From the NCBI RefSeq assembly GCF_016903815.1, contig NZ_CP069973.1: a stretch of DNA of 64,000 nucleotides. One strand, written 5' to 3'. A program made the translations under genes and the position numbers. A model generated the notes under the pieces. That model was not told where the DNA came from. It ran no database searches and worked only from the letters and a program-made list of their open reading frames with translations. Below, in pieces: positions 56,754 through 57,121 of the stretch (positions are counted from its first letter, which is position 1; each line of letters begins with the position of its first letter). This DNA is from Escherichia coli. Its GTDB lineage: Bacteria; Pseudomonadota; Gammaproteobacteria; Enterobacterales; Enterobacteriaceae.

Positions 56754-56999
56754 GACTATCCCTTATATTTCATTACTGCGATTATTTCAATTTCAGTATA
56801 CTAATGAAATGATGCCAGACTGTTTCTTAGCGCAAAAACTGCCAGATTTGGTAGGACCAAAATTTATCCACAAAGTAGTTTTGCATAACAGTTAATTGAT
56901 AATAAGTAAATGCAGCACGAATATATTTTCGCACAGCGTATAGCTTATGTTTATAAAAAAATGGCTGATCTTATTTCCAGTAAAAGTTATATTTAACTT

Positions 57000-57105
57000 A
57001 CTGAGAGCACAAAGTTTCCCGTGCCAACAGGGAGTGTTATAACGGTTTATTAGTCTGGAGACGGCAGACTATCCTCTTCCCGGTCCCCTATGCCGGGTTT
57101 TTTTT
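57000..57105 (+). ncRNA. gadY: GadY small RNA (cis-antisense to the gadX 3' end)
   Basis: Sequence ACTGAGAGCACAAAGTTTCCCGTGCCAACAGGGAGTGTT... ending in terminator CCCGG...CCGGG plus T9 is recognisable as gadY; lies opposite the gadX 3' end. Confidence 0.8.
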
Positions 57106-57121
57106 ATGTCTGAGTAAAACT

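Follow-up and report, generated by a model that had tools for sequence, protein, structure and literature searches.

The gadY small RNA gene and its regulatory setting in the acid fitness island of a chu-carrying Escherichia coli

In Escherichia coli K-12, the small RNA GadY is encoded on the opposite strand between gadX and gadW, binds Hfq and pairs with gadX mRNA (PMC11300174), and its pairing with the gadX 3′ UTR stabilises the gadX message (PMC10057817). Species of 105, 90 and 59 nt accumulate in stationary phase or at acid pH in K-12 (PMC5686845), and titration of CsrA as well as SdiA regulation have also been reported for GadY (PMC11300174, PMC10057817). The gadY −35 element reportedly overlaps an AppY motif (PMC10057817). 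The surrounding GadEWX regulatory network has been described (PMC4918353), and the same source gives both a GadX/GadW consensus, AKGKCTGWTWTTWWYMYVAK, and the sequence of the GadE site, TTAGGAttTTgTTATTTAAa. This GAD box belongs to the gadA and gadBC promoters. The species bound to it is an RcsB/GadE heterodimer, and its centre lies 63 bp ahead of the transcription start (PMC2887963). Finally, location of the chu genes between yhiF (dctR) and yhiD is the O-island 140 arrangement found in O157:H7 Sakai and EAEC 042 (PMC10540162). Here we compare with these systems a stretch of E. coli DNA of 64,000 nt (the window hereafter), for which an original prediction had placed gadY and its terminator opposite the gadX 3′ end, a GAD box upstream of gadA, and an intact regulatory layer of the acid fitness island beside a chu insertion.

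The gadY gene and its promoter

Comparison of the whole window with Rfam returned a GadY match (RF00122) at 56997..57110 on the plus strand, whose 150 bits (E = 8e-32) far exceed the gathering score of 45. The match spans the full model (1-114), every base equals the consensus and no non-canonical pair is flagged. Within it, the gene of K-12 MG1655 (b4452, NC_000913.3 3664864..3664969, annotated as 106 nt) is found as an exact string, 106/106, at the position given in Table 1. Alignment with K-12 gadY had been set beforehand as the check on the predicted sRNA, and its outcome, together with the Rfam score and a hairpin at 57079..57097 followed by eight T, bears out the presence of GadY and its terminator opposite the gadX 3′ end. 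We therefore hold 57000..57105 (+) to be, almost certainly, the canonical gadY gene, and no sequence evidence against this reading was found in the window. The interval originally assigned to the gene, 56754-57121, does contain it, but corresponds to the complete gadW-gadX intergenic region (368 nt), of which gadY is the last third only. This is an already known and ordinary gene, near-universal in E. coli and in its usual place.

The gene order is gadW(−)/gadY(+)/gadX(−), and a gap of 16 nt separates the gadY 3′ end from the gadX stop codon (57122..57124), exactly as in K-12, so that gadY is antisense to the gadX 3′ UTR without overlapping the coding sequence. Names of gadX and gadW follow comparison with K-12 MG1655 and the RefSeq annotation of strain 7/2 (NZ_CP023820.1), an E. 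coli isolate from human faeces in Sweden that matches the window at each of the 27,247 bases where the two overlap (100% identity). Sequence divergence in the GadY pairing region, the finding that would have spoken against the prediction, is absent from the window. For the cis target such divergence is moot, since both strands of one DNA mutate together and complementarity is never lost; it could affect only GadY structure, processing, Hfq or CsrA binding, and trans targets.

A terminator scan over 56700..57200 returned a single terminator-like site, namely the plus-strand gadY hairpin (CCCGGTCCCCTATGCCGGG, followed by the eight T of TTTTTTTT). The minus strand of the same interval presented none, which fits read-through of gadX transcripts in the direction of gadW. 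The minimum-free-energy fold of GadY reproduces all three hairpins of the Rfam model. Its folding energy is no better than that of shuffled sequence (z = −0.73, an uninformative value), and the structure hence rests on the Rfam model and not on folding energy, while a covariation signal is unobtainable because variation among the sampled genomes is zero. Going by the literature (PMC10057817), the GGA motif of stem-loop 2 would have a CsrA-binding role.

Table 1. Features of the gadY locus, the acid fitness island and the chu cluster, in window coordinates.
Feature	Coordinates	Strand	Remarks
chu haem-uptake cluster, O-island 140 type	38326..47386		between dctR and yhiD; 9.06 kb
arrS small RNA	50120..50189	−	70/70 identical to K-12
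gadE, central activator, 175 aa	50501..51028	+	protein identical to K-12
gadF small RNA, from gadE 3′ UTR	51127..51217	+	1 mismatch to K-12
gadW, AraC-family regulator, 242 aa	56025..56753	−	intact ORF; 19 nt and 4 aa differences from K-12
Rest of gadW-gadX intergenic region	56754..56999		divergent gadW/gadY promoter region and gadW 5′ leader
GadX/GadW-type box, ATGGCTGATCTTATTTCCAG	56961..56980	+	gadY −35 zone; 2 mismatches to published consensus AKGKCTGWTWTTWWYMYVAK
Candidate gadY −10 hexamer, TATATT	56988..56993	+	read from sequence; ends 6 nt before K-12 5′ end (57000)
gadY small RNA gene	57000..57105	+	full-length form ~105 nt (57000..57104); RefSeq annotation 106 nt
GadY stem-loop 1	57000..57046	+	minimum-free-energy fold and Rfam consensus structure
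GadY stem-loop 2	57051..57071	+	fold and Rfam structure; GGA motif 57057..57059 at stem/loop junction
GadY intrinsic terminator	57079..57105	+	6-bp GC-rich stem and 7-nt loop (57079..57097), eight T (57098..57105); terminator scan, fold, Rfam structure
gadX 3′ UTR / gadX-gadW intercistronic RNA	57000..57121	−	57000..57105 is perfect GadY complement, cis target; from geometry
gadX, AraC-family regulator, 274 aa	57122..57946	−	intact ORF; K-12 length, no internal stops
gadA, glutamate decarboxylase A, 466 aa	58306..59706	−	ATG at 59706; 2 aa differences from K-12
GAD box, RcsB/GadE site upstream of gadA	59786..59805	−	TTAGGATTTTGTTATTTAAA; 20/20 match to published site TTAGGAttTTgTTATTTAAa

Upstream of the RNA, the gadW-gadX intergenic region differs from K-12 at two positions only (56756 and 56773), both adjoining the gadW start codon. 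From 56774 to 57121 it is identical, which covers ~225 nt upstream of gadY and gadY itself. A sigma-70 consensus scan missed the gadY promoter: its sole match in the region, 56740..56769, lies at the gadW end of the spacer, where it straddles the gadW start codon (56753), and is within chance expectation. The assignment of TATATT as the putative gadY −10 element thus rests on its position relative to the K-12 5′ end. The first 8 nt of the GadX/GadW-type box, ATGGCTGA at 56961..56968, fit the AppY motif ATGSCWGM. Scans of the window gave 38 matches against 22 expected for the AppY 8-mer and nine against four for the GadX/GadW 20-mer. Such motifs are too degenerate for significance alone, and for this reason both labels at gadY rest on identity with K-12, by which the gadY promoter is predicted to carry GadX/GadW and AppY elements as in K-12.

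Conservation of gadY and its possible causes

Retention of gadY is the norm in E. coli. The intergenic region is present in 5413 of 5426 complete genomes, and in 5412 of the 5426 (~99.7%) the 106-nt gene is found at an identity of at least 99%, with ~14 of the 5426 lacking it. The rare losses include IS1-mediated deletion: in E. coli KFu015 (NZ_CP147130.1, record positions 3058..3818) the gadW-gadX spacer breaks off after its first ~60 nt at an IS1A element, with gadY, gadX and gadA lost, along with the 3′ part of ccp.

For a finer view, eight lineages picked for divergence in the intergenic region were aligned. Variable columns make up 7.4% of gadW, 9.6% of 56754..56899, 4.0% of 56900..56999 (none after 56935) and 8.4% of gadX, against 0/106 in gadY. 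The alignment is invariant from 56936 onward through gadY, a stretch that reaches 64 nt upstream of the RNA, and the chance of observing 0/106 variable sites at flank rates is ~2-3 x 10^-4, uncorrected for phylogeny. The same contrast holds at the species scale, where the 170-nt block made of gadY and its promoter (56936..57105) is kept at 99% identity or more in 5365 of 5412 genomes, compared with only 1493 of 5413 for the equal-length neighbour 56754..56923. Within an otherwise variable spacer, gadY and its promoter thus stand out as conserved, the pattern to be expected of a functional RNA with a complement that is functional as well. This conservation supports a function for gadY, and the population figures illustrate clearly how an sRNA gene can be constrained far more tightly than the sequence around it.

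In the gadW-proximal part of the spacer (56754..56935), variability matches what the third codon positions of the flanking genes would lead one to expect, and there is a 1-nt indel at 56773. Because of this variability, gadW leader and promoter sequences differ among lineages, with gadY constant.

Conservation is blind to which strand is selected, and the invariant block extends beyond the RNA into promoter/operator DNA. It could hence be that the block is kept mainly for a minus-strand role, as a 3′ UTR or intercistronic processing element, or as a protein-binding promoter, the plus-strand RNA being secondary. The terminator argues otherwise, as it is complete on the plus strand and has no counterpart on the minus strand, and so does the fit to a strand-specific covariance model of an experimentally detected sRNA. 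Moreover, these roles are not exclusive and the published mechanism needs both strands. We consider it improbable that the plus-strand RNA is the secondary product here.

Even less probable, in our assessment, is that gadY has been retained but is silent or decoupled, i.e., that the regulators or the gadX allele differ in such a way that the layer is intact in appearance only. Sequence cannot reveal expression, and gadX is the island gene most diverged from K-12, with 43 nt and 15 aa differences (94.8% nt identity) where its neighbours show 97-100%. Nevertheless, the promoter and its upstream region are identical to K-12 from 56774 to 57000, gadX, gadW and gadE are uninterrupted by stops and of full length, and the gadY block is unchanged in ~99% of 5,400 genomes that harbor many gadX alleles. 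Constancy of the block across gadX alleles therefore indicates continued selection and not a relic. As for a small protein encoded in the intergenic region instead of, or besides, the sRNA, mechanical ORFs of 26-47 codons do exist within 56752..57042, but we dismiss them with near certainty, given that all are short, without independent support and absent from the K-12 annotation, that the longest (56752..56895) crosses the indel at 56773 as well as numerous variable sites, and that the one overlapping gadY (56947..57042) starts in the promoter, upstream of the mapped RNA 5′ end.

The 5′ two-thirds of gadX (57225..57946) are near the E2348/69 allele and far from K-12/O157, and gadW together with the gadX 3′ end is nearer the K-12/O157 type. 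This mosaic suggests a recombination junction near 57100..57225, adjoining the invariant gadY block. With little confidence, we speculate that 56936..57105 may serve as a fixed anchor for homologous recombination shuffling gadX and gadW alleles, and that its constancy may also reflect constraint from overlapping functions (sRNA, mRNA processing site, divergent promoters and trans targets such as CsrA and SdiA).

The importance of a confirmed gadY is mainly one of annotation. Among the PGAP-annotated RefSeq E. coli genomes listed, the gadY feature was 'none' in every row, and the curated K-12 record alone has it. Annotation-based pipelines would consequently report gadY as absent from the PGAP-annotated genomes.

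The acid fitness island and the chu cluster

The GAD box upstream of gadA was found at the exact coordinates originally predicted. It is the sole match in the window even when three mismatches are allowed, with 0.03 expected by chance. Its near edge lies 80 nt upstream of the gadA ATG, an offset equal to that of K-12, and between 59872 and the ATG the gadA promoter shows no difference from K-12. A longer TTG-initiated ORF in the mechanical list was rejected as gadA, the gene starting at the ATG.

Between yhiD and ccp, the island aligns with K-12 by blastn as one collinear block (98.1% identity over window positions 47387..61126), in which gadE, gadW, gadX, arrS and gadF are all full length with no internal stops. 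At sequence level, then, the regulatory layer appears intact, as had been claimed. The 3′ part of gadF coincides with an Rfam ES205 match (RF02754, 51146..51217).

GadX/GadW-type 20-mers with two mismatches are also found upstream of gadE (49896..49915, plus strand) and upstream of gadA (59845..59864, minus strand). The AppY motif ATGGCTGA of the gadY site recurs at the start of the one upstream of gadE. Three of the four two-mismatch matches in the 64-kb window sit in known GadX/GadW-controlled promoter regions.

On the other side of yhiD, the blastn alignment with K-12 stops at 38325 (the dctR stop) and resumes at 47387, and the annotation of strain 7/2 fills this gap with genes from chuS through a heme ABC transporter ATP-binding protein gene. 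The chu insertion is thus real and lies between dctR and yhiD, but the conflict implied by calling the island intact despite it is absent: the cluster is ~9.6 kb away from gadY and in the standard O-island 140 location, so damage to the gad regulators was not particularly to be expected. In this chuA-positive strain, control of glutamate-dependent acid resistance would be complete at both the transcriptional and the post-transcriptional level.

Several other loci in the window were observed along the way. A match to the shuA/chuA 5′ UTR RNA thermometer (RF02597) at 41443..41474 on the minus strand scores 60.1 bits against a threshold of 58, is a perfect consensus match and lies directly upstream of chuA (39463..41445). 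In the arsR-gor region, two tandem Rfam AgrB matches, at 30896..30979 and 31130..31213 on the plus strand (99.7 and 108 bits), fall on the dinQ locus and represent its antisense sRNA pair, agrA/agrB. Between arsC and slp, where K-12 differs, there are two plus-strand ORFs: 34014..35027 (337 aa) matches the predicted permease family ArsP_1 (PF03773, E = 2e-52), whereas for 35608..36831 (407 aa), a 'hypothetical protein' in strain 7/2, Pfam gave no match.

Proposed regulation and comparison with known systems

Following the K-12 model, a stationary-phase/acid-responsive promoter within the gadW-gadX spacer would drive gadY transcription, which would end at the gene's own intrinsic terminator. 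The RNA is perfectly complementary to the gadX 3′ UTR, i.e., the intercistronic part of the gadX-gadW transcript. In the mechanism published for K-12, the GadY-mRNA duplex undergoes endonucleolytic cleavage involving RNase III and gadX transcript levels rise; the same is presumed here. More GadX would in turn raise expression of gadA, gadBC and gadE, and GadE together with RcsB would act at the GAD box upstream of gadA. Since the RNA is identical, the activities of K-12 GadY are retained as far as its sequence can show. The output strength of the circuit could differ from K-12, given that GadX differs at 15 residues.

With the K-12 GadY locus, the window shares the sequence, strand and position of the sRNA gene, its distance to the gadX stop codon, its terminator and ~225 nt upstream. 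It differs in 15 residues of GadX, four residues of GadW and two positions of the gadW leader (56756 and 56773). The acid fitness island of O157:H7 Sakai and EAEC 042 has chu at the same site, dctR (yhiF)-yhiD, with the remainder likewise collinear with K-12; however, the strain studied here is not O157, and its gadX allele is nearer the E2348/69 type than the O157/K-12 type. A further parallel is found in other chromosomal cis-antisense sRNAs that guide RNase III processing of operon mRNAs, AsflhD/flhD among them, where pairing is likewise perfect and the duplex is a substrate for double-strand-specific cleavage. Unlike these, GadY has an intercistronic/3′ UTR target and a positive effect, binds Hfq and has reported trans activities (CsrA, SdiA).
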